DNA from: an uncultured bacterium
Lineage (GTDB): Bacteria; Patescibacteriota; Minisyncoccia; Phycocordibacterales; GWA1-40-21
Length of the DNA: 64,000 nt
NCBI GenBank assembly: GCA_963716205.1
Contig: OY970290.1
Coordinates: 303,417-367,416, forward strand
Reading direction: 5' to 3'
This document shows positions 38,558 through 56,379 of this stretch, piece by piece. The position numbers and the translations under genes were made by a program. Every line of letters begins with the position of its first letter. Position 1 is the first letter of the stretch. Under the pieces are notes generated by a model. That model saw only the letters and a list, made by a program, of their open reading frames with translations, was not told where the DNA came from and did not search any database.

Positions 38558-39175
38558 TTAAAACCCCAATTTTTCTTTCACAATGATGACATGGAAAACT
38601 CTTCCCGACATCGGATTTTCTCCGTAAATGATAAGCGTTTTATTATTTGTGGTATGAGCTTTATATACACTCATCATGCGAGCATCTTCAAGCGGCACGA
38701 CATAACCTTCAAGCCGTTTCATCCCCTCTTCGATATTTGGAACGATTTTCTGCGCGCCGACGACGAGTATCAGATTTTTGGAAGTAAAGACTAGATGTGG
38801 CAGCTGGCTTCCGGAATTTGAGGCAACAATCATCCTCCCATTTTCCACGAGTGCGTGAACGCTACCCAAATAAAAATCCGAAAGGACCGACTGTTGTCTC
38901 AATTCCGCCCGCTTTGCCGCGTCATTTTCAGCAAAAATATTGGCATGCAGATCATTCCAGCCATGTTTGCCATCCTTCAGATATTGCATAAAACCGATTT
39001 CTTCGAGAGTGGTCGACGAACCATTCATGACGGAAACCCCGGCGGGAATAAGCTCTTTTATTTTTGCCAAAGCTTCCTCTTTATTTGAAACGACAATTGG
39101 ATTAAAATTTTTGCCTTTCAATGCTTCGGCAGTTTTTTGTATTATTTCATCCGATGCGATTTGATCATAATTCAT
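38558..39175 (-). CDS. LUD-domain (LutC/YkgG-like) protein
   Basis: Family-level similarity across 205 aa (…ALAKIKELIPAGVSVMNGSSTTLEEIGF…GAQKIVPNIEEGMKRLEGYVVPLEDARM…). Confidence 0.6.
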   Translation of the reverse strand: MNYDQIASDEIIQKTAEALKGKNFNPIVVSNKEEALAKIKELIPAGVSVMNGSSTTLEEIGFMQYLKDGKHGWNDLHANIFAENDAAKRAELRQQSVLSDFYLGSVHALVENGRMIVASNSGSQLPHLVFTSKNLILVVGAQKIVPNIEEGMKRLEGYVVPLEDARMMSVYKAHTTNNKTLIIYGENPMSGRVFHVIIVKEKLGF

Positions 39176-39217
39176 ATATTTTTTGAAAATTAAAAACTCA
39201 ATAACAATAGTATTATA

Positions 39218-39979: not shown

Positions 39980-39983
39980 AATT

Positions 39984-40967
39984 TTATTCGTTATCTTCCC
40001 GCAATGATCTGCCGGTATATTTCAAAAACACATCATCAAGACTCGGTTCGGTCATGCTGATACTTTCCGCTTTCAGACCGCTCGTATCAAGCAAGCGCAA
40101 AATATCCGGTATCGCATGATCGCCATCCATGACATGCAAGCGAAGCGTATTTTCATGTTTTTCGGATTTCATTGAAGGAAATTTTCCCAATAAAATCTTT
40201 TCCGATCTGCCGACGATTTCAGAATTTGCAAAACTGAGCGTGATCGTGTCGGTGCCGATGCTGTTTTTCAATTCAGTCGGCGTGCCAGTCGTGATGATTT
40301 CCCCATTATCGATGATGGCAATATTGTCGCAGAGATTGTCCGCTTCTTCCATATAATGTGTGGTCAGAAATATTGTCATACCGGTCTCATTTAATTTCTG
40401 GATTTCTTCCCACATGAACGCTCTGCTTTGCGGATCAAGCCCTGTTGTCGGCTCATCGAGCAAAAGGAGCTGGGGCTGATGCGTCATGCCGAGCGCGATA
40501 TCAAGCCTCCGCAATTGCCCGCCGGAATAGCTTTCAGCGACGCGGTCTGCAAAATTCTGCATTTGAAAATGTTCAATAAGCTCTTTTGCTTTCTTTTGTG
40601 CGGAAATTTTATCAATACCATAGAGCCGTGCTTGTAGGATGAGGTTTTCATATCCGGTCGAAGCGAGGTCTGCTCCGCCTGCCTGGCTAACATAGCCGAT
40701 ATTTTTGCGGATCTCCGCCTGATCTTTTGAAATGTCAAAGCCAACGATATTGATCGTGCCGTTTGTCGGCGTCAGAAGCGTGGAAAGAATTCTCTGCGTG
40801 GTGGATTTGCCTGCGCCATTCGGGCCGAGGAAGCCGAAAATTTCCCCGCGACGAACCGTGAGATTGACTCCTTTGACCGCTTCCACTTCATTTTTCTTTC
40901 CTTTGACTTTGGAAATAAAAGTTTTTTTCAGTCCGATAGTTTCGATGATGAGATCATTTTGAGGCAT
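39984..40967 (-). CDS. ABC transporter ATP-binding protein (DrrA-like)
   Basis: Walker A GPNGAGKST, signature YSGGQLRRL, Walker B LLLLDEPTTGLD; 327 aa. Confidence 0.88.
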   Translation of the reverse strand: MPQNDLIIETIGLKKTFISKVKGKKNEVEAVKGVNLTVRRGEIFGFLGPNGAGKSTTQRILSTLLTPTNGTINIVGFDISKDQAEIRKNIGYVSQAGGADLASTGYENLILQARLYGIDKISAQKKAKELIEHFQMQNFADRVAESYSGGQLRRLDIALGMTHQPQLLLLDEPTTGLDPQSRAFMWEEIQKLNETGMTIFLTTHYMEEADNLCDNIAIIDNGEIITTGTPTELKNSIGTDTITLSFANSEIVGRSEKILLGKFPSMKSEKHENTLRLHVMDGDHAIPDILRLLDTSGLKAESISMTEPSLDDVFLKYTGRSLREDNE

Positions 40968-41002
40968 AAAAATTATTTATTGAAAATCATTATACCAAAA
41001 AA

Positions 41003-42211
41003 TTAATTTTTCCCATTATAAATTGCATTCAGCAAACTAAATGTTTTTGAACCAAAAATAGTTTCACCGGTAATATTGTATTTTTGCTGGAACGCTTTCA
41101 CCGCAAGTTCCGTGCATGTGCCGATGGATCCGCTGTGTGGACATTCGTTTCGTGTCATTCCTGCCGGAGGATAATCTCCGTCCATAATCAAAGCTGTCTG
41201 CATCGCATAAATATCTTCAGCGTTTGAATTTTTGCTTGTCACCGGTGTGTTCCATGCATAAATATTTTCACTTGGATCATAAGAAGAAGTCGCAGTGACA
41301 TTTGTATTTCCAGTATAGTAATCCTGCAAACCGAGGTATGTCTGATAGGCGAGATCTTTCAGTGCAATGGGGCGTGTGATCGGATTGACGAATTGCGGTT
41401 CATAAATGTAATCATATTCGATGAGAATGGCTGCTGGCTTTGCCGTGTTATAGGCACCGATGCCGATCAATTGAGGATCTTGAATAAGGCCAGGTTCTTG
41501 AATTGGAAGATCACTTGTCGGATTATAAAGCGACAGTCTGTTGAAAACCGCTTCAGCAACCGGCTTTGTGGTGGAACTGTTGTCATAAATATTCGGCGGA
41601 TAATATTCGACAAAGCCGGTGTATTTGCCGACCGCGTTATAGGCATTGCCGCGATAATTATTGACGCAGATATTAATCATGAAATTTATATCATTCTCAT
41701 CTGCCCACTTCGTGGCACCATAGATGCGGATTGCATCATCTGTTGGCGCAGTATTGTGAACTTCGCCATCATTAAAAATAGCCGCGATTGCCGGATTAGC
41801 CATAGCTGTCTCTTTTGCAGCCTGTTCCCAACTTACGATAGCATTCCAGTTGGTATTAAAATAATTTTGGAATGTTGGATTCCATGCTTGCGTCGTGCGG
41901 GTGACATATGTCTGATAGTTTCCATTGCCATCCAGAAACTCTTGCAAATCATCGCCGATGGTCACTGCCAAATCACGCTCATAGATTTCACCGGATGGTG
42001 TTGCCATCTGTGTTCCGCCCTCGTCCGGCTCATGGGCGGGCACGATCATGACACGGATTTTTTTACCGTTTGAAAATGTAGCAGAAGCCGTTGCAGCCAT
42101 TTTCGGTGCCGCTTTAACGGTGAATTGAAAAGAATAATGATCCGCGGCATACCAAACCCCACCGATGATTACTGCCGCCAAAAATAATTTGAAAATGAAT
42201 TTATTTTTCAC
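41003..42211 (-). CDS. Secreted cell-wall amidase (Amidase_3-like N-acetylmuramoyl-L-alanine amidase) with C-terminal peptidoglycan-binding-like domain
   Basis: Signal peptide; RVMIVPAHEPDEGG...YERDLAVTIGDDLQEFL...YVTRT (Amidase_3 pattern); C-terminal ...TELAVKAFQQKYNITGETIFGSKTFSLLNAIY; 402 aa. Confidence 0.55.
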   Translation of the reverse strand: MKNKFIFKLFLAAVIIGGVWYAADHYSFQFTVKAAPKMAATASATFSNGKKIRVMIVPAHEPDEGGTQMATPSGEIYERDLAVTIGDDLQEFLDGNGNYQTYVTRTTQAWNPTFQNYFNTNWNAIVSWEQAAKETAMANPAIAAIFNDGEVHNTAPTDDAIRIYGATKWADENDINFMINICVNNYRGNAYNAVGKYTGFVEYYPPNIYDNSSTTKPVAEAVFNRLSLYNPTSDLPIQEPGLIQDPQLIGIGAYNTAKPAAILIEYDYIYEPQFVNPITRPIALKDLAYQTYLGLQDYYTGNTNVTATSSYDPSENIYAWNTPVTSKNSNAEDIYAMQTALIMDGDYPPAGMTRNECPHSGSIGTCTELAVKAFQQKYNITGETIFGSKTFSLLNAIYNGKN

Positions 42212-42295
42212 AGGCCAATTGTATCAGACTGAAAATAAAAAGTCATTCAAATTTTAGAAAATAAAAAAGCCCATCTTTTGACGGGCTTTTGTGCT

Positions 42296-42440
42296 TACTT
42301 TTTCTTTCCTCGCTTCTGATTTTTCCTTGCTGTGCTCCGAAGACGACGGGTTACTCCCCAAACTGGCTGGCCGACTCGTGCTGGAACCGTAGTCGGTCAA
42401 GCACTACAATGTCGGTTTGATGAGTTTTATTGTATCAAAA
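42296..42440 (-). ncRNA. Candidate structured non-coding RNA / cis-regulatory leader (unidentified) between two minus-strand terminator hairpins
   Basis: Locally GC-rich (~55% vs ~35-40% flanks) with nested complementary segments (CCGAC...GTCGG, GACCGACT...AGTCGGCC); bracketed by hairpin+T-run at 42481-42515 (after SNF2 gene) and 42262-42295 (50 nt before amidase start). Confidence 0.25.
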
Positions 42441-42515
42441 CGACGCGACTTGAGCTACTTAAAAAGTGACAAAAGTGACAGTTTAACGAGAAAAAGTTAC
42501 ATGGACGTGTAACTT

Positions 42516-45500
42516 TTATCGCACCAGCACAAATCCTTTTTCGGCATCAAGTTTTTTGAAAAGAACATATTTTGAACCAAGTTTCAGTCTTGAAAAATTG
42601 TTCTGTATGATCACCTCACTTGGTATTTTTTCCAGTCCGCCATATTGTTTTTTCAACTTTTCTCCTATTCCAAGTATTTCTTTTTCATTTGCGAGAATTT
42701 TCTTATCTTCGCTATTCAGATCAATTTCATACTTTTTACCACCAATTTCAAACTCACTTATTACTTTTCTAGAATCGCTCAATGTAGCTTTTTTCTTTGA
42801 AATCTTGAGTGCGTCCCTATTCCACGATTTTTCTCCTGCGACCATTTCCGATGTGCTAGCATCCAAATCTTTTTCCTTTTGTAGTGTCACGAACATGGAG
42901 CGATAATTGCTTCCGTGCAGAGCCTCTCCGGTATACTCGTCCACAATTTTAAAACCCAAATCTTTTGTCAACGACTTAAAACTATCGAAATCCTTAAAAT
43001 CAAGCGAGTAAATCATGTTCATGACGAATGATCCGCCCAATTTCAATACTCTGTTCATTTCAGAAAGTACCTTTAGACGTTCGTTATTTCCTTTGATTGG
43101 TTCAGCGGTGTAATGGAATGATAAGCATAAGTTCGTGAAATCGAATGACTTATTTGCGAATGGTATATTCAAGAAACTGCCGGCAACATTTTTTGCACCT
43201 TCGCTTTTCTCACTAGTAAAATGGCGCTCGTTCATATCCATACTGACAATATTATTCTGTAAGTTGTCAGCAATATGTCGTTTGAGCATCTCCGGACCTG
43301 AGGCCACATCAAGAATTTTCACGTCTTTCATTTCTTTATCTTTTATTAGATGCTCAATAATGGATCCTGAGACCCTGTTTGCGTTCGCTTGGTAATTTCT
43401 ACTACCCATATCGAGATAGGCTTCGGCATATTCATCCCCATGCTTTGCGATAAATTCGGAAAAGTCTGATTCACTTACTGATTTTACCGAACGGAAAATA
43501 CGAAATAATTTATCAAAACTCGAAAGATAAAAACGAGCAAGTTCGGCGTTCACGCTGAGATCTGCTGTGCCTTTTTCACTTTCTTTCAAGATTTCTTTTT
43601 CAATCTCTGTGACAGGTATTCCCTTGAGTAATTTTTCAACCGCCTTTTCTTTGATATCAATATATCGATGTATTCCCTCTTCAATAGAATCAGGGACGAT
43701 AGAGGTGACAACATCGAGATCATTTTTCATACCGACACGATATACACGGGATCGTTCCTGTCGTTCCTCGCTTTTCGTCCACGGTTCGTTATAGAACAAA
43801 ACGCTTTCGCCAGCTGAATAATCAACGCCGACTCCGGCAGTCTGCCCGCTAACCACGAGCAATATTTTTCCATCTCCATTTTTAAATTGTTCTTGAATCC
43901 TATCTCTTTCTTCCTTTTCTGTTTCTCCATGGACGATAAGAATTTTAACATCCTCTGGTAAATGAAAATTGTTTAATATCGATTTATCTCCCCGAATAAC
44001 ATCTTCCACGTAGTCGTTTACAAACATAAGAACTTTATTTTTCTGCTTGAATGTTTCGTTTAGATCCTGACCAACGGTTTCCGCTTTGATATTTTTGACC
44101 CCTGGGGTTGCTTCAAGTAATTCTGGGTTCAAAAGGAATTTTCGCATTACCTGAATTTTTTCCGTCGGCGAGAGAGAATCTTCCTCAAGAAGAAGTTCAT
44201 AGATACTTCTTTCATTTTCCGAAAGTCTGCTAAGCAGTACTCTCTCAATCATCTGGGGCATTTCGATATGCTCAGCCAGACTTTTCATTTGCATCTTGTT
44301 GACAAGCAACTTTCTTAATTCGGTGATATCACCGTTGATGATCGAACTAACAAGGTTTTTGTTTTCCATCTTTTCATACTTTTCCGGGTAGAGAAGTTTG
44401 AGTAGCATCGCAACATCCTGAATTTTGTTCGGAACCGGAGTACCGGAAAGAAGCGCCAGATATTGATCCTCTGTTTTTATCATGTCAGCAAGTATAATGG
44501 CGTTCTCCGCACGCACTCCTTCCTTCACATTCTTTATTTCATGCACTTCGTCAATGATCAACATGTCATAACCGATATCGTGCAATTTTTTCGTATTCTC
44601 GGCATTCAGTCTTTCCTGGGAAATCAACACGTAATCGAGATTCTCCCTATCCAAATTGTCCAGATCAAAAATGTTTTCTATGGTCAGGATTTTTGGCGCT
44701 TGTCCTGGTTTGAAATATCCAACTTGTTTCCCGTCCCCCGATACTTCGTCCGAAAGATATTTTTGCCATGTGCTTAACACATTACTTGGAGCTACAATTA
44801 AGCCAAGTTTTACGCCTAAACATTCTTTGGCAAGTATGGCAGAAGCGCTTTTGCCAACTCCCATTTCATCGGCAATAAGCAGACGCTTTTTGTCGGCAAT
44901 TTCCTTAATATTGATAGATTGGTAAATGTCAGGAAAATTCCTGTTTTCCTGAACATTATCAATCAATCGGTCTGGTTTTTCAAAACCGTGATCAACTGAT
45001 CTATAATAGTCCATCGTCGATTGAATAACCTCATCAAGTTCTGAACTGTTGAGTTTTTTGTTTTCATCCGAAATCTTGTTAAAAAATTCTCCAAAAATAA
45101 CTTTATCTGAATCAATTCTTTTATTTCTTTTTTCACCAAGATAATATTGAAGCGCAGAATCCTTCAATACCTCAAAAAGACCCGCTTTCAAATCTTTCTC
45201 TTTTATCAAATTAGATGAGACAGCGTACTCAAGATTTTCGGTATTAAATGGTATTCTGAGAAGTAAATAGTTACCAAGATATTCCGATATGATCTTATTT
45301 GCTTTTTCGACAGGTAAACCCTTGAAGTCTGGGTGCTGGGCGTACAATACGTCCAAAAAGCGTGAGGAACCGAATAAGCCGACTAATTTTCCAAATTTTT
45401 TCGCTTCTTCCGATTCACCCTTTCCTATATCCTCACATTTTACCTTTAATTCTTTTTCCAAATTTTCCTGAGAGTTTTTTTCATTCAATGATTCTTCGCG

Positions 45501-45653
45501 AAGTAGTTTCATTACTTCTTCTTGTGCTTCCGGAGAAAGAAACAAAGTTTTTTTACCGTTTTTTCCACGAAAATAGTCGTATTTTTTCCCAGAGTTCTCC
45601 GGATTTGATTGGGTTGATTCAATCGTATTATTAAAGGGTATTTTTTCGCTCAT
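42516..45653 (-). CDS. SNF2-family helicase fused to C-terminal class-I SAM-dependent methyltransferase domain
   Basis: SNF2_N motifs (LLIADEMGVGKS; MLIIDEVHEIKN), helicase-C region, then ILDVASGPEM...LKLGGSFVM (MTase motifs I/post-I); 1045 aa; last gene of 4-gene operon. Confidence 0.8.
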   Translation of the reverse strand: MSEKIPFNNTIESTQSNPENSGKKYDYFRGKNGKKTLFLSPEAQEEVMKLLREESLNEKNSQENLEKELKVKCEDIGKGESEEAKKFGKLVGLFGSSRFLDVLYAQHPDFKGLPVEKANKIISEYLGNYLLLRIPFNTENLEYAVSSNLIKEKDLKAGLFEVLKDSALQYYLGEKRNKRIDSDKVIFGEFFNKISDENKKLNSSELDEVIQSTMDYYRSVDHGFEKPDRLIDNVQENRNFPDIYQSINIKEIADKKRLLIADEMGVGKSASAILAKECLGVKLGLIVAPSNVLSTWQKYLSDEVSGDGKQVGYFKPGQAPKILTIENIFDLDNLDRENLDYVLISQERLNAENTKKLHDIGYDMLIIDEVHEIKNVKEGVRAENAIILADMIKTEDQYLALLSGTPVPNKIQDVAMLLKLLYPEKYEKMENKNLVSSIINGDITELRKLLVNKMQMKSLAEHIEMPQMIERVLLSRLSENERSIYELLLEEDSLSPTEKIQVMRKFLLNPELLEATPGVKNIKAETVGQDLNETFKQKNKVLMFVNDYVEDVIRGDKSILNNFHLPEDVKILIVHGETEKEERDRIQEQFKNGDGKILLVVSGQTAGVGVDYSAGESVLFYNEPWTKSEERQERSRVYRVGMKNDLDVVTSIVPDSIEEGIHRYIDIKEKAVEKLLKGIPVTEIEKEILKESEKGTADLSVNAELARFYLSSFDKLFRIFRSVKSVSESDFSEFIAKHGDEYAEAYLDMGSRNYQANANRVSGSIIEHLIKDKEMKDVKILDVASGPEMLKRHIADNLQNNIVSMDMNERHFTSEKSEGAKNVAGSFLNIPFANKSFDFTNLCLSFHYTAEPIKGNNERLKVLSEMNRVLKLGGSFVMNMIYSLDFKDFDSFKSLTKDLGFKIVDEYTGEALHGSNYRSMFVTLQKEKDLDASTSEMVAGEKSWNRDALKISKKKATLSDSRKVISEFEIGGKKYEIDLNSEDKKILANEKEILGIGEKLKKQYGGLEKIPSEVIIQNNFSRLKLGSKYVLFKKLDAEKGFVLVR

Positions 45654-45702
45654 ATAGCTATTATTAACGGTGTTTGATAAAAACGCAAGTTCAAATTATC
45701 GA

Positions 45703-47136
45703 CTAGTCACCTTTTAGTCTTTTTAAAATTTTTTTCTTATCGAGACCAGTTTCTTCTGCAATATTATCTAAAGATACCCAACCTTGTGGAGGTTCTGGCG
45801 TTAATTTTTCATCAATAAGTTCAACTAATTTTGGTGAATAATAATATGCCATAGCACCGCCCTTAGGATTTCTGAACATTCCCCTTTCTTTTTCAAGATC
45901 AGAGTTTTTTTCAATCAATCTATCGACAGTTTTTGTAATAGTCAAACTGTTAGCTTTTCTTTTTTCTTTGAGATTTAGTAATGACATCCAATTTTCTGGA
46001 GCCTCTAATATTAAATCTTTCTCAAAAAGTCTGATTAGTTCGGGAGAATAAAAATATGTTACAGGCCCACCTTTTGGATTTTTAAATATCCCCCTTTCTT
46101 TCTCAAGATTGGGATTTTTCTCGATCAATCTCTCAATTACCCCATCGATTCCTGTTCTGCTTATTTTTATTATTTTTAATTTTTCGTGAAGATCCAATGC
46201 TGGTATCCAATTTTCAGGGGCTTCAGGCATCAAGTTCTCATCAATAAGTTCGATTAGTTTGGGTGAATAGTAGAGCGATTTCAACCCATTTGGATTTCTA
46301 AACATTCCGGTTTCCTTCTCAAGCTCAGGGTTATTTCCAATTAATTCATTAATCACCCTTTCGATTGCAACTCTGCTAAACTTTATTTTCTCTTTAAGAA
46401 AACTAGGCATAGATATCCAATTTTCAGGTGCCTCAGGCACCAAGTTCTCATCAATAAGTTCGATTAGTTTAGGTGAAAAATATATAGTGGGCATTCTATT
46501 TTCGTTCGTAAATACTCCCTTTTCTTTCTCAAGTTCAGGAGTTTTTTCAATTAATCTATCAACTATTCCTTCGATCGCCTTTCTACCTAATTTTGGTTTT
46601 TCCTTGAGAAGGCTTGGGAATGATACCCAATCCTTTGGAGATTCTTGATTTAATTTTTTTATTTTATCTTCAATCAATTTCACTAATTCTGGTGAGTAAT
46701 GAATAACTGATTTTCCGGCACTTGGTGAACGAAACATTTTAATATTTTCTTCCGCTTTCAATTTTCCGTCTGATTCATCAATGATTTGTTCAGCATATTT
46801 TCTAACAGTCGATTGATCAATATCATATCTGTCTATAATTGCAGTTTGTGTTGTCCAATCTTTTGGTGCGTCTTCAGTCAAATTTTTCTCAACTAATTCT
46901 ACAATTGCTGGTGAAAAATAAAATGACTTCCCCGTTTCTGAATTTCTAAATATCCCCCTCTCACTTTCAAGTTCTGGAAATTTTTCAATTAATCTATTGA
47001 CTAATCCATTGAACGCAGTTTTTTTGAGATTAAATCTTTTCTTAAGATCAGGTGTAGATACCCAATTTTCCGGAGCCTCCGTTGCTTCGGGTTTTTGTTC
47101 TGACTCAAAATTGTTTGTAAGGAATTTTTCTGACAT
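45703..47136 (-). CDS. Tandem-repeat protein (~6 copies of a ~70-aa HTH-like module)
   Basis: Repeat consensus PE(A)PE-W-s-L-sL-EK-g-sk--I---a-KIIEES-G-L-K--E-G-F-S-K-g-P--YySPkLVELIE--L; 477 aa. Confidence 0.7.
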   Translation of the reverse strand: MSEKFLTNNFESEQKPEATEAPENWVSTPDLKKRFNLKKTAFNGLVNRLIEKFPELESERGIFRNSETGKSFYFSPAIVELVEKNLTEDAPKDWTTQTAIIDRYDIDQSTVRKYAEQIIDESDGKLKAEENIKMFRSPSAGKSVIHYSPELVKLIEDKIKKLNQESPKDWVSFPSLLKEKPKLGRKAIEGIVDRLIEKTPELEKEKGVFTNENRMPTIYFSPKLIELIDENLVPEAPENWISMPSFLKEKIKFSRVAIERVINELIGNNPELEKETGMFRNPNGLKSLYYSPKLIELIDENLMPEAPENWIPALDLHEKLKIIKISRTGIDGVIERLIEKNPNLEKERGIFKNPKGGPVTYFYSPELIRLFEKDLILEAPENWMSLLNLKEKRKANSLTITKTVDRLIEKNSDLEKERGMFRNPKGGAMAYYYSPKLVELIDEKLTPEPPQGWVSLDNIAEETGLDKKKILKRLKGD

Positions 47137-47141
47137 AGATT

Positions 47142-49016
47142 TTAAATATTGTTTCCTTTAATTATCCTTTTTATTTTTTCTTTACTTATTCCGATTTTTT
47201 CCGACAAAGAATCTATACTCTCCCATCCTTTTGGGGCTTTTTCTGGTAAATTTTTCTCAATTAGTTCAATTAGTTTTGGAGAAAAGTATGTTGCGGGTAA
47301 ACCACTTTTTTTAGAGGCAAACATTTTTTCTTCTTTTCCCAATCCATTGTTCGATTCCTCAATTATTTTCTTGGCTATACCCTTAATTATGGAGACACTG
47401 ACATTATTTTTTTCTGCAATCGAAACCAAACTTATCCATCCTTCAGGACTCTGCTGAGGAAGACTTTGTTCAACTAAATCAACTAATTTTGGCGAAAGAA
47501 ATAATGTAGATTTGTTATTCTCAGAAAAGAATATACCCGCTTCTTTTCCGAGTTTCCCCTTCGATTCTTCAATTATTTTTTCAGATCTACTTTTAATTGT
47601 ATTTGGATCAACTTGATTTTTTTTTGCTATAGAAGCTATACTTAACCACCTATCAGGTGCTTCGTGCGGTATTTTTTTTTCAATCAATTCCACTAATTTG
47701 GGAGAGTAATATATTGCTGGCGGACCCATTTTTTTAGCAGAAAATTTTTTCATTTCCTCATTAAGTTTTCCATCTGATTCATTGATTATTTTTTGAGCAA
47801 TATTTTCAATAAACCCCTTACTGATTGAATATTTATTTACAAAGAAATTCGAGTCAGCCCATCCATAAGGAGCTTTCTCGGATAAATCTTCTTCAAGTAA
47901 TCTGACTAGTTTGGGCGAATAATATGATGTTGGAGGACCCTTCTTTTTAGAAAAAAATATTCCTGATTCTTCATCCTCTTTAAGATTCCCGTTTGATTCC
48001 TCGATTATTCTATTAACCTTATATGCAATTCCTGTTTTTGTAACTCCATATTTTTCCGCTAGAGAAATCAGATCTATCCACCCAATAGGTGGTTCTTGGG
48101 GTAGAATCCTTTCTATTGATTCTACTACTTTTGCCGAATAATATTTTGTTGGTTTATGGTTTTTGGCCCAAAATATCCCTGTATCCTTTTCTTCCGAAAG
48201 CTCACCTTTTGACTCCTCAATTATTTTTTTTGCTCTATTTTCATATGCTATTCTACTAATTCCATATTTTTTAGTTAGAGAAATTATATCAGACCATCCC
48301 TCAGGCGCTTTTTCAGGTAAGTCTCTTTCAATTAATTCTACCAGTCTAGGTGAATAATACATTGTTAGATTGCCGGACTTCTTAGACGAGAACATTCCAA
48401 CATTTTCGATTTTTTTGAGATTTTCATTTGAATCCCCAATTATTTTTTGAGCTAAATTTTCAATCGTTTTTTTATTTATTCTGTGTTTTTCAGCAAAAGA
48501 AATCCGATCGACCCATCCATCAGGTGCTTCGTGCGGTATTTTTTTTTCAATCAATTCCACTAATTTGGGAGAGAAAAAAGTTGATGGTTCATTATTTATT
48601 TTTGATGGAAACATTGACCTTTCTTTTTCTAGATTTCCATTTGACTCCTCAATTATTTTTTCAACAATTTTTATAATAGTGGGCATACTAATCCCGTATT
48701 TTTGTACTACAGATGTCATACTCACCCATTCCCCAGGTGCTCTTTTGGGTAGTTTTTTTTCAATTAATTCCACGAGTCTAGGTGAATAATATACTGCAGT
48801 AGGAATTTTTTGTGATGAAAATATCCCAATATCGTCTTTTTTAGTAAGACTTCCGTTCGATTCCCCAATTATTTTTTGAGCCAAATTTTCAATTAGTCCT
48901 CTACCAAATCCATACTTTTCTGTAAGAGAAACCAACATTTGCCATCCATCCGGAGATTCTACTGCTTCCGGTTTTTGTTCTGGCTCAAAATTGCTTATAG
49001 GAAATTTTTCTATCAT
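47142..49016 (-). CDS. Tandem-repeat protein (~9 copies of the same ~70-aa module)
   Basis: Same repeat; N-terminus MIEKFPISNFEPEQKPEAVESPDGW paralogous to neighbours; 624 aa. Confidence 0.7.
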   Translation of the reverse strand: MIEKFPISNFEPEQKPEAVESPDGWQMLVSLTEKYGFGRGLIENLAQKIIGESNGSLTKKDDIGIFSSQKIPTAVYYSPRLVELIEKKLPKRAPGEWVSMTSVVQKYGISMPTIIKIVEKIIEESNGNLEKERSMFPSKINNEPSTFFSPKLVELIEKKIPHEAPDGWVDRISFAEKHRINKKTIENLAQKIIGDSNENLKKIENVGMFSSKKSGNLTMYYSPRLVELIERDLPEKAPEGWSDIISLTKKYGISRIAYENRAKKIIEESKGELSEEKDTGIFWAKNHKPTKYYSAKVVESIERILPQEPPIGWIDLISLAEKYGVTKTGIAYKVNRIIEESNGNLKEDEESGIFFSKKKGPPTSYYSPKLVRLLEEDLSEKAPYGWADSNFFVNKYSISKGFIENIAQKIINESDGKLNEEMKKFSAKKMGPPAIYYSPKLVELIEKKIPHEAPDRWLSIASIAKKNQVDPNTIKSRSEKIIEESKGKLGKEAGIFFSENNKSTLFLSPKLVDLVEQSLPQQSPEGWISLVSIAEKNNVSVSIIKGIAKKIIEESNNGLGKEEKMFASKKSGLPATYFSPKLIELIEKNLPEKAPKGWESIDSLSEKIGISKEKIKRIIKGNNI

Positions 49017-49023
49017 ATAATTA

Positions 49024-51558
49024 TTAGGATATATTTTTATTAATAATCCTTCTAATTTTCTCCGCGTCTATTTTAGTATTTTTTGCAAGTGTCTCTACAC
49101 TAGTCCAACCTTCAGGGGGTTGATCAAGGGTTTCTCGGGAAAATTTTTCATTAATTAGCTCAACTAATCTTGGCGAATAATATATGGCAAGCCCACCAGA
49201 AGATCGAAACATTCCCATATCCATACTTTCCTTCAATTTTCCGTTCGATTCCAGGATTATCTTTTCAGCTGTATTTTTAACCGTGCTTGGATTAAATCCA
49301 TATTTTTTTGCGAGTGACACCCTGTCCATCCAATTTTCTGGTGCCTTCTTGGGCAGTCCTTGTTCGATCAATTCAACCAGTTTTGGTGAAAAATATGTTG
49401 TTAACCTATTATTACTTTTTTTTGACGGAAAAACACCGATTTCTTCATCCTCCTTCAATTTTCCGTTCGATTCATTAATTATTTTTTTAACTCGTTTTTG
49501 GATCGTCAATCTATTAACTTCATATTTTTCCATAAGGGAAACCATATCAGACCATCCCATTGGTGCTTCTTTGGGCAATCCTTGTTCGATTAATTCAATT
49601 AACTTTGGTGAGAAACATGTGGTAGGCATACCACTCTTTTTTGATCGAAATATTCCCATTTCATCCTCTTCCTTGAGTTCACCCTTTGACTCTTCAATTA
49701 TTTTTTTTGCTTTACGTTGAATATACTGATTATCAGTATTATATTTTTCCGCTAGAGATGCCAAATCCGCCCAATCTTTTGGGGCTTCTTTTAGTAAATC
49801 CTTCTCGATTAATTTAACTAATCGTGGTGAAATATATATTGAAGGTCTCTTACTTTTTTTTGACAGGAAAACACCCATTTCGTCTTCTTTCTTGAGCTCT
49901 CCATTTGATTCCTCAATTATCTTTTTAACCCTACCCTCAATTTTTGTTCTACTAGAATCATCTTTTTCTGAGAAAGAAAGCATACTTATCCATCCTTCTG
50001 GAACTTCTTTAGGTAAATTTTTTTCAACTAGTTCAACTAATTTTGGTGAGAGGTATACGGACGGAGGACCACCTTTGGGGGAAGGATAAATTCCCATCTC
50101 CTCATCTTTTTTGATCTTTCCGTTCGATTCTTCAATTATTTTTTTTATTCTATTTTTAATAGTGCTTTTATCTGCTCTACTTTTTTTTGTAACGGAACCT
50201 AAATCCAGCCATCCTTCGGGTACTTCCTTGGGTAGTCTCTGCTCAATCAATTCAATTAGTTTGGGTGAGAAATACATAGTTAACCTATTACGTTTTTTTG
50301 ATGGGAACATACCCATCTCATTGTCTTTTTTGAGTTCCCCCCCTGATTCCTCAATTATTTTTTTGGCCCTGTTTTCAATTATTGTTTTATCTATCCCATA
50401 TTTCTCTGTAAGTGGAATTATACTTATCCATCCATCAGGAGTTTTTTCAGGCAACTGTTGTTTAATCAATTCAACCAATCTTGGTGATAAATGCATGGAA
50501 GGACTACCGTTTTTATTCGAGGGGAAGATTCCCATCTCCTCATCTTTTTTGATCTTTCCGTTCGATTCTTCAATTATTTTTTGGGCTCTGCTTACAATCA
50601 TTGTTGCACCAAATCCGTATCTTTCCATAAGAGAAGATAAATCGGTCCAACCTTCAGGTGCATCTTTCGGCAATTCTTTTTTAATGAGTTCTGCAAACTC
50701 AGGAGAGAAATATGTTGTGGGATAACCACTTTTTTTAGCAGGAAAGGTCCCCATTTTTTTCGCAAGTTTTCCGTTCGATTCCTCGATTATTTTTTGGGCT
50801 CTATTCTCGACTATTGATCTGCTAGTTTTGTATTTTTTTAAAAAAGAAATTAGGTCTATCCATCCTTCGGGGGCTTCTTTCGGTAAATTTTTCTCGACCA
50901 ATTTAACTAACTTTGGTGAGTAATATATCGCTAATCCCCCAGGAGATCGAAACAACCCCGTTTCTTCACCTTCTTTCAGTTCTCCGTTTGATTCCTCAAT
51001 TGTTTTTTGTATTCTTCTTTTAAGAACATTCTCACCAACAGCATATTTTTCCATAAGCGTAGGCGTGTCTACCCAACTCATAGGGGCCTCGTTCGGCAAT
51101 TCTTTTTTAATGAGTTCTGCAAACTCAGGAGAGAAATATGTTCCGGGCACCCTACCCCTTTTAGACATAAATTCCCCAACCTCTTCAGTGAGATTTCCGT
51201 TTGATTCTTGAAGTAATTTTTTAACCCTCTTTTCAATAGTTCCTCTGCTGAGTTTATGCTCCTCAGCAAAAGAAACTAAATCTATCCATCCTTTTGGTGC
51301 TTCCTTAGGTAGATTTTTTTCTATTATCTCTGTCAACTTAGGTGATAAGTATTTTGCCGGTTTACCACCGTTTTTAGATTTAAACATCCCTATTTCCTCT
51401 GCTATTTCTCCGCTCGATTCCTCAACTATTTTCTGGACCCTTCTTTCGATTACACCCTTATCAAATCCAAATTTTTCTGCGAGAGAGGTTATATCTGTCC
51501 ATTCTTCAGGAGCTTCCTGAATTGACTCATTTGAATTAAATGGAAATTGTTCAGTCAT
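49024..51558 (-). CDS. Tandem-repeat protein (~12 copies of the same module); start moved to MTEQFPFNSNES by homology with paralogues
   Basis: 12 repeats, e.g. PEGWTDLSSLMERYGFGATMIVSRAQKIIEESNGKIKKDEEMGIFPSNKNGSPSMHLSPRLVELIKQQLPEKT; ORF extends to 51753 but upstream 65 aa are non-repeat and unlike paralogue N-termini. Confidence 0.7.
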   Translation of the reverse strand: MTEQFPFNSNESIQEAPEEWTDITSLAEKFGFDKGVIERRVQKIVEESSGEIAEEIGMFKSKNGGKPAKYLSPKLTEIIEKNLPKEAPKGWIDLVSFAEEHKLSRGTIEKRVKKLLQESNGNLTEEVGEFMSKRGRVPGTYFSPEFAELIKKELPNEAPMSWVDTPTLMEKYAVGENVLKRRIQKTIEESNGELKEGEETGLFRSPGGLAIYYSPKLVKLVEKNLPKEAPEGWIDLISFLKKYKTSRSIVENRAQKIIEESNGKLAKKMGTFPAKKSGYPTTYFSPEFAELIKKELPKDAPEGWTDLSSLMERYGFGATMIVSRAQKIIEESNGKIKKDEEMGIFPSNKNGSPSMHLSPRLVELIKQQLPEKTPDGWISIIPLTEKYGIDKTIIENRAKKIIEESGGELKKDNEMGMFPSKKRNRLTMYFSPKLIELIEQRLPKEVPEGWLDLGSVTKKSRADKSTIKNRIKKIIEESNGKIKKDEEMGIYPSPKGGPPSVYLSPKLVELVEKNLPKEVPEGWISMLSFSEKDDSSRTKIEGRVKKIIEESNGELKKEDEMGVFLSKKSKRPSIYISPRLVKLIEKDLLKEAPKDWADLASLAEKYNTDNQYIQRKAKKIIEESKGELKEEDEMGIFRSKKSGMPTTCFSPKLIELIEQGLPKEAPMGWSDMVSLMEKYEVNRLTIQKRVKKIINESNGKLKEDEEIGVFPSKKSNNRLTTYFSPKLVELIEQGLPKKAPENWMDRVSLAKKYGFNPSTVKNTAEKIILESNGKLKESMDMGMFRSSGGLAIYYSPRLVELINEKFSRETLDQPPEGWTSVETLAKNTKIDAEKIRRIINKNIS

Positions 51559-51655
51559 ATGACTACGGTATAACAAATTTGCCGAAAATGCAAATAAAAA
51601 CTTGCATAAAATATTAATGTATGTTATGGTAAAGCCCGAAAGAGAGGTGTACCTT

Positions 51656-51973
51656 ATGGATCTCATATCAGTTTCTTCGACGAAGTTTCGCAACAAGGAG
51701 GATGGAACTGAGTTCACGGTTGTCAAAGCCAAACGCTTTGAGAAGCATAACATCAGGAAATACAGACAGTACCTGATGTCACTCTCAGACGGAAAGCTCG
51801 TGGGCGTTTACTTCTACGGCCAACTGGTGCCCCTCATCACCGTAACTACCGGTGTCGAGAAGCTCACCCAGGTGACCGTCGGGAAAAAACTGCTACGTAC
51901 GGCAGCCGAGATAAGCAAGGCCCTGGGAATCAAGAAACCCAAAAAGCCCGTTCCGCTTGTTCTCGTTTCGTAG
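51656..51973 (+). CDS. Hypothetical protein (GC-rich, RBS AGAGAGG, strong terminator)
   Basis: MDLISVSSTKFRNKEDGTEFTVVKAKRF...; 106 aa; visibly higher GC than surroundings. Confidence 0.5.
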   Translation: MDLISVSSTKFRNKEDGTEFTVVKAKRFEKHNIRKYRQYLMSLSDGKLVGVYFYGQLVPLITVTTGVEKLTQVTVGKKLLRTAAEISKALGIKKPKKPVPLVLVS

Positions 51974-51993: not shown

Positions 51994-52033
51994 CGCACTC
52001 ATGACTTATGGTCGTGAGTGCGTTTTATTTTTT
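51994..52033 (+). terminator. Rho-independent terminator
   Basis: CGCACTCATGAC-TTATG-GTCGTGAGTGCG then TTTTATTTTTT. Confidence 0.65.
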
Positions 52034-52084: not shown

Positions 52085-52318
52085 TTATAAAGTACCGGTA
52101 ACGGGTTGGGTGATTGTGCCGGTTTTAGCAACGATCTCGTCGCCGTTTTTGAGGACAAGCTGCGAGCCGAGCCGAGCACCATCCATTGTCTTTGCCGTCC
52201 AAACCTTTCCTACCGGAGTTTTATTTATTCCGGAAGTCAGGTCTTCGGTCTTCACCAACTGGAAATTTCCTCCAGTCATCCTCAGCTCAAAGACAGAATC
52301 TCTCGTCACTATTTTCAT
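52085..52318 (-). CDS. Small hypothetical protein co-transcribed downstream of Y-family polymerase
   Basis: Perfect SD AAGGAGG 5 nt upstream of ATG; 77 aa beta-rich; GC-rich. Confidence 0.5.
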   Translation of the reverse strand: MKIVTRDSVFELRMTGGNFQLVKTEDLTSGINKTPVGKVWTAKTMDGARLGSQLVLKNGDEIVAKTGTITQPVTGTL

Positions 52319-52389: not shown

Positions 52390-53634
52390 TTATAAAAACA
52401 ACAAATCTCGATCAAGATCATCCGAATCCGTTCCCTTCTCCTTGTGCCCCATAGCTTTGTGAGTAGAAGCCAGATAGACGACGTTTTTTCCAAATTTCTC
52501 CTCAAGAGAATCGATACGCTCGTGAATCAGTTTGAATTTATCCGATTGATTGCTGTTGCCGAACAGGTCTTTCTGCGAGACGGAATCGGGAATGAGATCC
52601 TCGAGGATCACTCCCGTCGTGCGATATGGAACACCTTTTGTATGTACTGTCTTGAAGCGTTCTCGAATCAAAGGAATGAGTATTTCAGGAGAATTTGTCG
52701 GTGAAGGAAGCATGACAGAGCAAGTTGAATACTTGAAACCGCTTGTTTTGAGGAAGAATGAAAATTTCTTGGCGGCAAGTTTATAATGTCTTGCCTTTCT
52801 ACAGGCTTCCTCCGCATGCTTGGAGAGTTGAGAAAGAAGAAACTCCATGTCGTTTGTTGCTGGGTGGAATGTTCTTGTTTTTTGAATGGATGAATAGCTA
52901 GTCTTCGGATTCGAATCTATTTCCATGACGGAAACCCCGTTGAGTTCCTGCCACATGGTTTCATACGGTTTGGAAAGATTCTCCCTGATCCAATCAATAT
53001 TCTTTTGCGCCAGATTGAGTGCGGTATAAATCTTCTTGTTTTTTAGATACTCCGCTGTCTTTGGTCCTATGCCCCATATCTTTTCAATGGGAGTTTTTGT
53101 GAGGAAGTCGGATATCGTTTCTTTTTCAATCACGGTCAATCCATTCGGTTTGACCCACTTTGAGGCAACCTTGGCAAGAACTTTGGTTGGTGCAAGCCCG
53201 ACTGAAATGGAAAGTCCCAATTCGTCGGCAATTTCTTTCTTGATGCGCTGCGCTATTTCCTTGTATGTCATTTTGAGCGGCTTATCAAGACCCGTCAGAT
53301 CGGCAAAGCACTCATCGATGCTGTATTCTTCAATGTCGTCTGCATATCTGCGAACGATATCAAACATCATGCCGGAATAGCGGACGTATGATTTATAATC
53401 CCCTGGCAGGATAATGACATTGGGGTAATCCCTCTTGATCCGAAAGATCGGCATGCCACGCCTGATACCAAGAGCTTTGGCTTCATACGAGAATGCGGAT
53501 GCGATTCCCCGCTCCTCGCCCGTGACAACGGGAAGGCCTTTGAGTTTCGGATTCTTCGCCATTTCCACGCCGACAAAGAATGCGTCTCCGTCCATGTGAA
53601 GAATGACTTTATTTTTTGGAATTTTGTTGGACAT
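52390..53634 (-). CDS. dinB: Y-family DNA polymerase (DinB/UmuC-like, error-prone translesion polymerase)
   Basis: ILHMDGDAFFVGVE (catalytic Asp palm motif), SIDECFADLTG, little-finger region; 414 aa. Confidence 0.88.
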   Translation of the reverse strand: MSNKIPKNKVILHMDGDAFFVGVEMAKNPKLKGLPVVTGEERGIASAFSYEAKALGIRRGMPIFRIKRDYPNVIILPGDYKSYVRYSGMMFDIVRRYADDIEEYSIDECFADLTGLDKPLKMTYKEIAQRIKKEIADELGLSISVGLAPTKVLAKVASKWVKPNGLTVIEKETISDFLTKTPIEKIWGIGPKTAEYLKNKKIYTALNLAQKNIDWIRENLSKPYETMWQELNGVSVMEIDSNPKTSYSSIQKTRTFHPATNDMEFLLSQLSKHAEEACRKARHYKLAAKKFSFFLKTSGFKYSTCSVMLPSPTNSPEILIPLIRERFKTVHTKGVPYRTTGVILEDLIPDSVSQKDLFGNSNQSDKFKLIHERIDSLEEKFGKNVVYLASTHKAMGHKEKGTDSDDLDRDLLFL

Positions 53635-54085: not shown

Positions 54086-54868
54086 TTGGGAAAACATCAT
54101 TTAATCTGTGGAAGCGCTCTCGATCCAAAAATCGTGGAAAAGCTCATGGATGGCGCAAAGGCGGATTTAATTGATGATGATGTCCCATTCAATATTCGGC
54201 TTCCGTACGATAAATATGGCGGAACATATGAAGATGACAAGACAGACGAAGAATATGAGACGTTTGTGAAGACAATCATGCAGAACGCCCTATCGGTGGC
54301 CAAGAATGATGCACATATCGTTTTTTGGTGCGATGAGCGATACGTTTGGTTACTGGAAGTGCTTTATAAAAAATTCAGGATTGATTCAAAGAGGCTCCTT
54401 GTTTGGTGTAAAAACAATTCGTCGCCGACTCCGAGTTGCGCCTTCAACAAAGTGACGGAGTTTGCAGTGTACGGAACTATAGGAACTCCATTTCTTGCCC
54501 AAAATATCACTAATCTGAATCAAATTCAGAATCACGAGATGACGACCGGCAACAGCTTGCACGATGAGATCATGGATTTCTTCAATATCATGCTCACCAA
54601 AAGGTTACCGAGCAACAAATACGAACATTCGGCACAAAAAGATCCGTCCATCCACTACAAAGTTCTGAAAAGATGCACACGGGTCGGAGACGTTGTTTTG
54701 GATCTCACGGCGGGCACGGGAAGTCTCTTGATAGCATGCGAACAATTAAAGAGAATCGCCTACGTATGCGAACTTGATCCAAAGTTCTGCCAGCTCATCA
54801 TCAATCATTACGAAGCGCTTACGGGCGATAAGGCTAAACTGATCCACTCCGATGAAACAACGAATTAA
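54086..54868 (+). CDS. Beta-class DNA methyltransferase (N6-adenine or N4-cytosine)
   Basis: N-terminal HHLICGSALDP...ADLIDDDVPFN (motif IV, DPPY-like) followed by C-terminal VLDLTAGTGSLLIA (motif I, FxGxG) = circularly permuted beta-class order; 260 aa. Confidence 0.8.
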   Translation: MGKHHLICGSALDPKIVEKLMDGAKADLIDDDVPFNIRLPYDKYGGTYEDDKTDEEYETFVKTIMQNALSVAKNDAHIVFWCDERYVWLLEVLYKKFRIDSKRLLVWCKNNSSPTPSCAFNKVTEFAVYGTIGTPFLAQNITNLNQIQNHEMTTGNSLHDEIMDFFNIMLTKRLPSNKYEHSAQKDPSIHYKVLKRCTRVGDVVLDLTAGTGSLLIACEQLKRIAYVCELDPKFCQLIINHYEALTGDKAKLIHSDETTN

Positions 54869-55463
54869 AGCCCCGTTTCTCGAGGAATTGAGAAAAATTC
54901 CTATCATCAAGATGACTACTGATAAATTGGGTATATCGAGGAACACAATCTATCGCTGGATGAAGCTAAACAAGAAATTCAAAGATGATGTTCATGAGGC
55001 GCTCATGGAAGGAGAAAAAAATCTCAATGAAATGGTTGAGTCAATGCTCGTGAAAAAGGCGCTCAACGAGGAGGACCTGCGTGCAATAATGTTTTATCTC
55101 ACTCGCAGGCATCCAAAATACAAGCAAAGCATTGAAAATTCCAAACAAATTTCCGAAACAGAAAGCTCACTCGACATTGCGGAGAGAAATATCCGATCAC
55201 TGCTCAAACGGGGAGACAAAGACATCACCAAGTTTGTCTTGGAAAGATCAAAACCTGATGTGTACAGAAAAATACCTGCAGATGAATTGCGAGAGAATCA
55301 AGCGGAAGCAGAGCGATTGAGAGAACTTGAAAGAATCAGTAAAACGACCGAACCATGGGACAGTCTGAAACAGCATTCAAAAAAGTACATACTGATGATG
55401 AGAGAAGCTGAAAAGAAAATCCGAGAAGAAAAATCGGACACCGAAGAAATAGATAAAAAATAA
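54852..55463 (+). CDS. HTH-domain protein (terminase-small-subunit-like / possible R-M controller)
   Basis: N-terminal HTH (TTDKLGISRNTIYRWMKLNKKF), charged coiled-coil C-terminus; overlaps MTase stop by 17 nt; 203 aa. Confidence 0.45.
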   Translation: MKQRIKAPFLEELRKIPIIKMTTDKLGISRNTIYRWMKLNKKFKDDVHEALMEGEKNLNEMVESMLVKKALNEEDLRAIMFYLTRRHPKYKQSIENSKQISETESSLDIAERNIRSLLKRGDKDITKFVLERSKPDVYRKIPADELRENQAEAERLRELERISKTTEPWDSLKQHSKKYILMMREAEKKIREEKSDTEEIDKK

Positions 55464-56240
55464 TTATTCGAGAATGGCATTTAATATATCCATTCTTGCT
55501 TGTACGTTTGGCATGTCAGCATCTACAGTTTTTACTCCCCCATTCATCAGTTCTCTGAGATAAAGTGAAACCGAAAATATACCGAGTGTTTTAAACGGTG
55601 TTTGTATGTTTTCATTGTGCAAATCTGAAACGGAAATATGGGAAAAAGGTTTAAGGTTATTGTCTTTTGATATCGGCATCCAATAGATGATGACGGGTTC
55701 TGCAATGACATTTTCATATGATTTGGGTTTTTTCATTTCAACCAATACTTTAGTCACATTGTTGGGAAATGTTTTATCGGAGAAAGATTTCAATTGCTGT
55801 TGCCAATAATATTCCGCAACTTTAATCGTCTCGTCTCTATCAATTGTTAATTTTTGACCAAAAGAATTGTAAGCTCCTATTTTTGGGCAAGGCTTACCAG
55901 ACCAAGAATACCTATTTTCTCTTTCGATATTAGGTGCACCAAAAATACTCAAAAATTCATCTCGAGTTAGTATTTTATCTTTTCCTTTCCATATGCCGTA
56001 TTTAGGCGACCAATCACCAAAAGTTGTCTTACCTGTAGTATGGTTTTTCATTTCAAAACCATCTATATCAGGTGTATTACTTGCATTATGAGCAACACCC
56101 ATTTGTGTTTCAAGCCAATGACCACCCCTACCATCATGTCCTTGATTGGAAGTTGATGTATTAGGAACTCTACCTTTTACATTCTTCAGAAAAAGATTAA
56201 TGATCTTTTCTTTTATTTTTTTAGTTTCTGTTGCAGTCAT
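55464..56240 (-). CDS. Hypothetical protein; candidate type II restriction endonuclease by context (convergent on MTase/HTH pair)
   Basis: No recognised family; assignment by position only; 258 aa. Confidence 0.3.
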   Translation of the reverse strand: MTATETKKIKEKIINLFLKNVKGRVPNTSTSNQGHDGRGGHWLETQMGVAHNASNTPDIDGFEMKNHTTGKTTFGDWSPKYGIWKGKDKILTRDEFLSIFGAPNIERENRYSWSGKPCPKIGAYNSFGQKLTIDRDETIKVAEYYWQQQLKSFSDKTFPNNVTKVLVEMKKPKSYENVIAEPVIIYWMPISKDNNLKPFSHISVSDLHNENIQTPFKTLGIFSVSLYLRELMNGGVKTVDADMPNVQARMDILNAILE

Positions 56241-56308
56241 TCCGCTATATTAGCAAAAAAGAACATTAAAGGCGATATTTAATGCGACTTGATTACTGCT
56301 CAACTCGG

Positions 56309-56379
56309 CTGGGGGACTAGGAATCGGACCTAGATTAAAAGCTTCAAAGGCTTCTGTCCTACCGTTAGACGATCCCCCA
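56309..56379 (-). tRNA. tRNA-Gln (anticodon UUG)
   Basis: Manually folded on the minus strand. Acceptor UGGGGGA/UCCCCCA is a perfect 7 bp. U8, D-stem GUCU/GGAC and D-loop with GG are present. Anticodon stem GAAGC/GCUUU with loop CUUUGAA gives U33 and anticodon UUG. T-stem is CUAGG/CCUAG. The T-loop UCCGAUU carries the non-canonical C55. Discriminator is G. Confidence 0.6.

Follow-up and report, generated by a model that had tools for sequence, protein, structure and literature searches.

Within a 64,000-nt stretch of an uncultured bacterial genome (hereinafter the window; positions 303,417–367,416 of contig OY970290.1, GenBank assembly GCA_963716205.1), three adjacent, co-oriented minus-strand genes, here called A, B and C, lie within positions 45703–51558 and encode long tandem arrays of a small repeat unit. 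By its predicted structure this unit is a winged helix-turn-helix (HTH) domain, and sequence comparisons with homologues elsewhere make the arrays look like the detached N-terminal module of the enzyme encoded by the neighboring gene, which joins an SNF2 ATPase to a methyltransferase of the Rrp8/nucleomethylin type (hereinafter SNF2-MTase). We therefore lean towards reading A, B and C as subunits that can detach from an ATP-driven translocase with an Rrp8-like methyltransferase and that anchor or target it to DNA. The four genes are as follows:

49024–51558, minus strand: gene C, 844 aa, with a 13-aa leader (MTEQFPFNSNESI), full units C1–C11 (49126–51519) and a truncated terminal unit C12 (49027–49125) followed by the stop codon; from the list of open reading frames (ORFs), start set by leader homology
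47142–49016, minus strand: gene B, 624 aa, with an 18-aa leader, full units B1–B8 (47244–48962) and a truncated terminal unit B9 (47145–47243); from the ORF list
45703–47136, minus strand: gene A, 477 aa, with an 18-aa leader, full units A1–A6 (45799–47082) and a truncated terminal unit A7 (45706–45798); from the ORF list
42516–45653, minus strand: the SNF2-MTase, 1045 aa, combining an SNF2 ATPase with a class I methyltransferase of the Rrp8/nucleomethylin type and a C-terminal domain; final gene of the probable operon

The repeat unit and its predicted fold

Anchoring on the invariant P..W and SP motifs to set the unit boundaries, we obtained 25 full units of 69–76 aa (207–228 bp) and three half units of 31–33 aa across the three proteins, with the invariant core residues kept in all of them. 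The longest ORF for gene C reaches 51753; the ATG at 51558 was taken as its start instead because the resulting leader is homologous to those of A and B and the gene then does not overlap the divergent gene beyond it. An earlier note on this DNA had counted 27 copies (6, 9 and 12 in the three genes), which is right in scale but mixes two ways of counting: applied consistently, these give either 6, 8 and 11 full units or 7, 9 and 12 anchors. The full-unit counts bear out its suggestion that the genes are paralogues differing by whole units, and the origin of the arrays by repeated duplication, which it had also proposed, likewise holds.

Structure prediction for the two-unit fragment C9–C10, using an alignment of 22 overlapping unit pairs of the window, yielded a model (pLDDT 90, pTM 0.65) in which each unit runs through a strand, a helix, a turn, a long helix, a short helix, a β-hairpin and a final helix. 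In structure comparisons the unit came closest to DNA-binding domains only, namely those of Par, RacA, DdrC, MerR-family regulators, mycobacteriophage Xis, TorI and TnrA/GlnR, and a sequence profile of the 25 units gives a weak match to the HTH in the winged-helix regulator 3r0a. On the unit, all Pfam and NCBIfam models stay below their cut-offs: the sub-threshold Pfam HTH scores are 18–21 bits for HTH_36 (cut-off 25), 13.9 for DUF1233 (cut-off 22) and 22 for HTH_41 (cut-off 25), and the NCBIfam scan of the unit gave nothing relevant. On the strength of the model, we classify the unit at the level of fold as a MerR/excisionase-type winged HTH that belongs to no curated sequence family. Basic K/R residues are conserved in helix 2 (the recognition helix, H2) and at the tip of the wing, and variability is greatest in the alignment columns of the wing and of the N-terminal end of H2; the modelled fold points to DNA binding. 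In terms of this model, proteins A, B and C would each consist of a short leader, a chain of 6, 8 and 11 winged HTH domains, respectively, and a truncated terminal unit.

The SNF2-methyltransferase and the probable operon

The N-terminal motor of the neighboring enzyme is recognized by the Pfam models SNF2-rel_dom (63.8 bits) and Helicase_C (53.2 bits) and retains intact helicase motifs I, II, III and VI (DEMGVGKS, DEVH, LSGTP and QERSRVYRVG); the NCBIfam models for RapA, DrmD, ZorD and DpdE match it weakly. The C-terminal part is a Rossmann-fold S-adenosylmethionine-dependent methyltransferase that is closest to Rrp8/nucleomethylin in both sequence and structure: Pfam Methyltransf_8 matches it and nucleomethylin/Rrp8 is, by a clear margin, its best structural match, whereas a PDB sequence search with this region retrieved generic matches only. 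Nucleomethylin/Rrp8 is a ribosomal RNA (rRNA) methyltransferase that produces 1-methyladenosine (m1A).

The enzyme begins with the leader MSEKIPFNNTIESTQ, as do A, B and C with theirs, and the leaders of all four proteins conform to the pattern M[STI]E[KQ][FI]P..N..ES.Q. The intergenic gaps measure 7 nt between C and B, 5 nt between B and A, and 49 nt between A and the SNF2-MTase gene. An intrinsic-terminator-like hairpin lies 3′ of the SNF2-MTase stop:

42265–42290, minus strand: 11-bp stem followed by a T run

Nothing comparable (an 11-pair stem with a direct T run) separates C, B, A and the SNF2-MTase gene from one another; the scan gave only three weak minus-strand matches of 5–6 pairs, all inside coding sequence. 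The short gaps, the placement of a terminator-like hairpin only after the SNF2-MTase gene and the common leader together suggest a four-gene operon, C-B-A-SNF2-MTase, with translational coupling. None of the four starts has a Shine-Dalgarno motif, while a nearby gene has a perfect one, and the sequence just 5′ of all four ATGs is A/T-rich (45654–45702, 47137–47141, 49017–49023 and 51559–51600). This suggests reinitiation or initiation independent of a Shine-Dalgarno motif, and possibly selection on the common 5′ coding leader.

Divergent from gene C is a small gene that recurs with the system:

51629–51973, plus strand: small protein, about 114 aa, whose start may be 51602, 51617 or 51629
51994–52022, scored on the plus strand: terminator-like hairpin between the small protein gene and a 77-aa ORF

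Homologues of the small protein are encoded directly beside array or SNF2-MTase genes in at least eight other loci (L005, L008, L009, L010, L011, L012, L014 and L083-85), and it is probably a third component of the system. Searches of Pfam, PADLOC, PHROGs and PDB sequences with it returned no match.

Fused and split forms in other genomes

In a protein cluster database A, B, C and the SNF2-MTase are each singleton clusters, all derived from a single contig of 681,747 bp; exact look-ups of A and B retrieved 0 contigs, and a word-indexed protein search with gene B matched only the three paralogues of the window. Because that search went no further, we ran an exhaustive profile search with the 25 units against 1.84 billion protein representatives, which recovered a family of 335 proteins (170 at E ≤ 1e-10) with 3–14 units each. 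The SNF2-MTase has 304 homologues at E ≤ 0.001; the figures that follow refer to the best 120 of these (bit score ≥ 887), which share 42–49% identity and range from 1013 to 1822 aa in length. The named ones among them derive from Levybacteria, Saccharimonadia, Vogelbacteria and other Patescibacteria. Four clear orthologues of the patescibacterial type (L005, L007, L012 and L014) come from metagenome-assembled genomes (MAGs) labelled 'uncultured Gammaproteobacteria', which may be a labelling or binning problem.

The unit of the window forms an N-terminal array on the enzyme itself in 45 of the 120 homologues, and 58 are at least 1400 aa long, the fused forms being the commonest; fused arrays of 5–8 units occur, for instance, in six species-representative genomes (L002, L004, L005, L010, L013 and L014). 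The split form likewise recurs. In a Saccharibacteria MAG (L009) three array genes of 7, 7 and 4 units stand directly upstream of a short-form enzyme, and in the L083-85 locus the enzyme is preceded by four array genes, whose products measure 634, 780, 412 and 426 aa, and these by a small gene (103 aa). Both loci have the small protein upstream and a short-form SNF2-MTase downstream, and each of their array proteins has its own leader and truncated terminal unit. Three further loci carry 2, 4 and 6 paralogous genes without Pfam matches, overlapping or tightly packed, upstream of a short-form SNF2-MTase (L086, 6774–9998; L087, 4559–9994; L088, 1230–9996, respectively). In L086 and L088 these paralogues share the N-terminal leader of their own enzyme, and in all three loci they end in a conserved tail, ISP[DQ]EA.EE[LF].KL[LF]E, to which the N-terminal motif LSPEAQEEVMKLL of the window enzyme is similar. 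The fusion of arrays to the enzyme in dozens of homologues, the gene order and the common leaders argue strongly that A, B and C work with the SNF2-MTase.

The modules also occur in other combinations. Unit arrays are found at the C-terminus of a different helicase of superfamily 2 (SF2; ResIII/DEAD/Helicase_C, about 500 aa; cases among P0131, P0138, P0165 and P0230), and, in many other proteins, behind an unannotated N-terminal domain of about 245 aa. Conversely, some SNF2-MTase homologues (P0013, P0020 and P0014) bear other N-terminal repeats, either an approximately 65-aa TGxYxD..G..W...GR...LY repeat or, in P0014, an array of Pfam HNH_repeat, so that the enzyme core seems to accept interchangeable repeat modules. 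Between species the number of units per protein varies from 1 to 14 and that of array genes per locus from 0 to 6. The wider neighborhood is not conserved between genomes, with a serine recombinase at L083 and the dcw, nusA-infB and rpoBC clusters at other loci, and a scan of 2.9 million viral contigs yielded no relative.

A conserved split point in the terminal unit

The array proteins of the window, L009 and L083 all end in a unit that covers only profile positions from about 2–31 to 2–43, i.e., the strand, H1 and H2. The N-terminus of the enzyme, after its leader, matches only the second half of the unit profile: residues 16–43 match positions 35–64 in the window enzyme, residues 21–42 match positions 51–72 in that of L083, and residues 16–30 match positions 56–70 in that of L009. 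In the fused homologues the last unit before the enzyme is complete. From these alignments, the split terminal unit could be a relic of gene fission, or it could be a docking device in which two half-domains complement each other. The latter could be extended to a modular, re-targetable motor, which we put forward as a tentative and on the whole doubtful elaboration. The first half-domain of an array protein (strand, H1, H2) would be completed by the second half on the enzyme (wing strand, last helix), so that any of the three array proteins here, or of the 2–6 elsewhere, could dock on the single enzyme. The paralogues would act as interchangeable guides, their diverged recognition helices reading different long DNA targets in the manner of transcription activator-like (TAL) effectors, and would decide at which loci ATP-driven remodelling and Rrp8-type methylation take place. 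The common leader could serve as an assembly or export signal, and in an extreme version the operon would encode effectors that episymbiotic bacteria deliver into the host cell.

Proposed multivalent subunits for a translocase

In the mechanism that we favor, the array proteins would be multivalent nucleic-acid-binding subunits, most likely binding DNA, that hold the SNF2 motor and its methyltransferase on long stretches of substrate or guide them there. Each chain of 6–11 domains would amount to a covalently pre-assembled multivalent DNA-binding rod or wrap, comparable to the head-to-tail filaments of Xis, BldC and RdfS. Both single units and entire 5′ gene modules, each a leader with its array, would have been duplicated in tandem as the arrays grew, with long divergence and occasional gene conversion afterwards. 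The fusion of the array to a second, different SF2 helicase supports its association with a motor.

Several observations weigh on the other side. DNA binding by the arrays is a prediction from the modelled fold, and a Foldseek search of the PDB with the two-unit model gave nothing significant, its non-significant matches being again winged helices (ScpB, MarR, TraN and BldC). The array proteins lack strong basicity (isoelectric points 5.8, 9.0 and 9.0), their association with the enzyme rests on gene order and homologue fusions, and the resemblance of the methyltransferase to an rRNA m1A enzyme could suggest RNA instead of DNA.

Divergence of the units and alternative explanations

The earlier note's central observation, tandem coding repeats running through three adjacent genes, was confirmed at the DNA level. 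At lags 219 and 213 the autocorrelation of the region reaches peaks of 0.386 and 0.359, respectively, with further peaks at multiples of these lags, against a background mean of 0.295 at lags that are multiples of 3 and a maximum of 0.313 over 200 codon shuffles. Self-comparison with blastn produced 78 off-diagonal high-scoring segment pairs, the top one with 66% identity over 1877 bp (E = 5e-119), as opposed to 0 in a control region of the same size. Tandem Repeats Finder reported no array in the region because pairwise identity between units is only 43–70% in DNA (19–60% in protein). The units are thus old, diverged repeats whose periodicity is far above chance. A neighbor-joining tree groups A1 and A3–A6 as a clade, with A2 placed among the units of B and C, which are themselves interleaved; units two apart are at least as similar as adjacent ones, and the strongest DNA self-alignments in B and C lie at two-unit offsets. 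The array has a G+C content of 0.33, compared with about 0.40–0.44 in the adjacent window sequence; we rejected horizontal transfer as the reason, as the K/E/I/N-rich composition of the proteins accounts for it. The antisense ORFs listed for the region are, as the earlier note held, artefacts, i.e., low-complexity shadows of the K/E/I-rich coding strand:

47149–47457: antisense ORF
48428–48676: antisense ORF
49184–49720: antisense ORF
50111–50725: antisense ORF

Against a background identity of about 62–65%, four patches on the minus strand stand out:

50090–50144 (C7) and 50528–50582 (C5): gene-conversion-like patch, 55-bp exact match
50668–50716 (C4) and 51094–51142 (C2): gene-conversion-like patch, 49-bp exact match
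47667–47706 (B6) and 48534–48573 (B2): gene-conversion-like patch, 40-bp exact match
46204–46477 (A4/A3): 64-bp stretch of 94% identity, including a 30-bp exact run

In 200 codon-shuffled sequences the longest in-register exact run was 31 bp, which the runs of 55, 49 and 40 bp exceed and that of 30 bp does not; from the three we conclude that units of the same gene have recombined or undergone gene conversion with one another, in keeping with what the earlier note had supposed of the past. Neither a protein cluster search nor a metagenome scan with the flanking amidase found a strain-level relative of the window genome. A second assembly (L081; Logan, ERR11563597, short-read), found through the SNF2-MTase look-up, corresponds to window positions 32516–47024 with one mismatch in 14.5 kb and ends inside unit A1; the array may hinder short-read assembly.

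The same note had gone on to call such arrays recombination-prone and repeat-number variation between strains or cells plausible. Read as a contingency locus, the array would change its unit number between cells or strains by frequent unequal crossover and thereby bring about phase or size variation of the multi-HTH proteins. Copy number does differ between the paralogues and between species, the three exact patches of 40–55 bp within the same gene are long enough for rare further events, and the short-read contig of the same organism breaks off within a unit. Nevertheless, we consider such a device very improbable. The units share at most 70% DNA identity, whereas the size-variable repeat proteins known to us have near-identical repeats; adjacent units are not the most alike; and, the four patches aside, no stretch of homology reaches the length that frequent unequal crossover would require. 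Rapid variation also finds no support in the L083-85 locus: across three metagenome samples, 10,445 bp with the small gene, the enzyme and the four array genes between them show 100% identity, and one array protein of this locus (780 aa) is unchanged on 8 contigs. As part of the explanation that we favor, we are inclined to regard unit number as an evolutionary variable and not a switch. A coding tandem array, however long, need not be a contingency locus, and the repeats here are old and stabilized by divergence. Even harder to credit is the proposal that an array once fused was broken up by nonsense or frameshift mutations or by assembly errors, leaving A, B and C as dead fragments. The prevalence of fused forms speaks for it, and one homologous locus in a Paceibacterota MAG (L011, 3123–8452) really is a fused array-enzyme gene broken by one in-frame stop and one frameshift, both inside units, be it a pseudogene or an assembly error. 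The clean split forms contrast with it: each window gene has, like the SNF2-MTase gene, its own ATG and conserved leader and ends at the same within-unit position, the invariant core residues persist in every unit, the same layout recurs with its own leaders and terminal units in L009 and L083-85, and the independent assembly agrees. We accordingly rejected a single broken gene.

Two further alternatives concern what the system acts upon. The units might bind RNA or scaffold proteins, for example presenting an rRNA or protein substrate, with the SF2 motor working on RNA or ribonucleoprotein. The kinship of the methyltransferase with nucleomethylin/Rrp8, the near-zero net charge per unit and the location of some loci among translation and transcription genes (nusA-infB-rpsO-pnp in L087; rpoB-rpoC-rpsL in L088) would fit this, but the nearest structural matches of the unit (Par, RacA, DdrC, MerR and Xis) are all DNA-binding, the characterized SNF2 ATPases of which we are aware are double-stranded DNA translocases, and in genomes of the candidate phyla radiation (CPR) nearly everything lies near housekeeping genes, which makes the context weak evidence; we regard an RNA or scaffolding role as unlikely. 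A part in anti-phage or anti-plasmid defence, or in counter-defence, in the style of BREX, DISARM or Zorya and with the arrays as sensors, is compatible with a DNA-binding mechanism and strikes us as conceivable, if rather improbable. The SNF2 part matches the PADLOC models ZorD, DpdE, BrxH and DrmD as well as the phage helicase family phrog_62, the window locus adjoins a Y-family polymerase and a restriction-modification pair by tRNA-Gln, a serine recombinase flanks L083 and an N6_N4 methylase L084, and neighborhoods differ between genomes. However, the PADLOC matches cover only the generic helicase core and no other component is present: ZorABC, DrmABC/DrmMI, PglX/PglZ/BrxC and DpdA-K were absent among the six operon and neighboring proteins scanned and, by Pfam, in the flanks. 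Moreover, the methyltransferase is Rrp8-like and not of the DNA amino-methyltransferase type, the viral contigs yielded no relative, and other loci are embedded in core gene clusters.

Genomic setting and significance

The window carries the genes rpoC, dnaG, rpoD, dnaB, cysS, gltX and aspS, and its cysteinyl-tRNA synthetase is 70–73% identical to proteins labelled Candidatus Paceibacterota or Minisyncoccia; its source is accordingly a chromosome of the Patescibacteria (CPR). Upstream of the operon lie the following features:

52085–52318, minus strand: 77-aa ORF with a perfect Shine-Dalgarno motif, adjoining the Y-family polymerase gene
52390–53634, minus strand: Y-family (DinB/ImpB-type) DNA polymerase, between the array operon and the restriction-modification genes
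54086–54868: N6_N4 DNA methylase of the restriction-modification pair by tRNA-Gln
54852–55463: HTH protein resembling a terminase small subunit, between methylase and endonuclease
55464–56240: LlaMI/MvaI-BcnI-like endonuclease of the restriction-modification pair
56307–56379: tRNA-Gln
62170–62242, plus strand: tRNA-Asn
62230–63936, minus strand: 568-aa protein with an N-terminal resolvase (serine recombinase) domain

The stop end of the resolvase ORF (62230) and the end of tRNA-Asn share 13 bp, a possible boundary of an integrated element.

Taken singly, the fold, the motor and the class of methyltransferase were already known, while searchable full-text literature yielded no description of the SNF2-MTase or of long winged-helix arrays in CPR. 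Apparently undescribed are the repeat family, its long arrays, the small partner gene, and the fused-or-split architecture with its common leaders and divided terminal unit. Many Patescibacteria with tiny genomes devote 5–10 kb to this system, whose enzyme joins a motor of the chromatin-remodeller type to a methyltransferase with eukaryotic nucleolar nucleomethylin/Rrp8 as its nearest structural relative. Candidate purposes include control of the nucleoid or of transcription, defence, or something else. If the arrays read DNA, they would exemplify long covalent winged-helix arrays coupled to a motor enzyme with exchangeable targeting subunits, with a bearing on nucleoid organization, gene control or genome defence in a major uncultivated lineage.

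Comparison with known systems

As in the polyvalent proteins of phages and conjugative elements (PMC5512222), a large SF2/SNF2 helicase is combined with a methyltransferase in the window enzyme, which also weakly matches the phage helicase family phrog_62; the window locus differs in being chromosomal rather than part of a phage, plasmid or conjugative element, in the absence of relatives from the viral contig scan and in its type of methyltransferase. The pairing of an SNF2 motor with nucleic-acid-binding accessory domains is shared with RapA, with the remodellers bearing SANT/SLIDE or AT-hook modules and with Dnmt5, and enzymes of the Dnmt5 type also unite SNF2 and methyltransferase in one protein. 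Here, however, the methyltransferase resembles Rrp8/nucleomethylin and not a DNA cytosine or adenine methylase, and the accessory module is a variable series of 1–14 winged helices that can be split into 2–6 separate genes. Tandem winged helices in one chain are also seen in pIP501 TraN, ScpB and SarS, which were among the best, albeit non-significant, Foldseek matches; these have two domains only, with neither long arrays nor variation in unit number. TAL effectors, in turn, share with the window proteins long tandem arrays of a small domain whose number varies between paralogues, and conserved structural positions alongside variability where contacts are presumed, namely in the wing and at the beginning of the recognition helix. 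Their fold is unrelated, the window units are much more diverged and no repeat-to-base code is known for them, so that the likeness is one of analogy only.

The nearest parallels to the unit itself lie among winged-helix domains of the MerR/excisionase type. BldC binds direct repeats as cooperative head-to-tail multimers (PMC5859096), and RdfS forms superhelical winged-helix polymers (PMC11963761, PMC9527761). The window unit shares with BldC, lambda-type Xis, TorI, RdfS, pSK1 Par and RacA the same fold of about 55–70 aa, comprising a strand, the HTH, a β-hairpin wing and a final helix. Xis behaves similarly to BldC and RdfS. Unlike in these proteins, scores for Pfam HTH_17, MerR and Xis fall below threshold and DNA binding is a prediction in the window proteins, in which 6–11 domains are strung along one polypeptide by short proline-rich linkers, in three paralogous chains that accompany an ATPase-methyltransferase.

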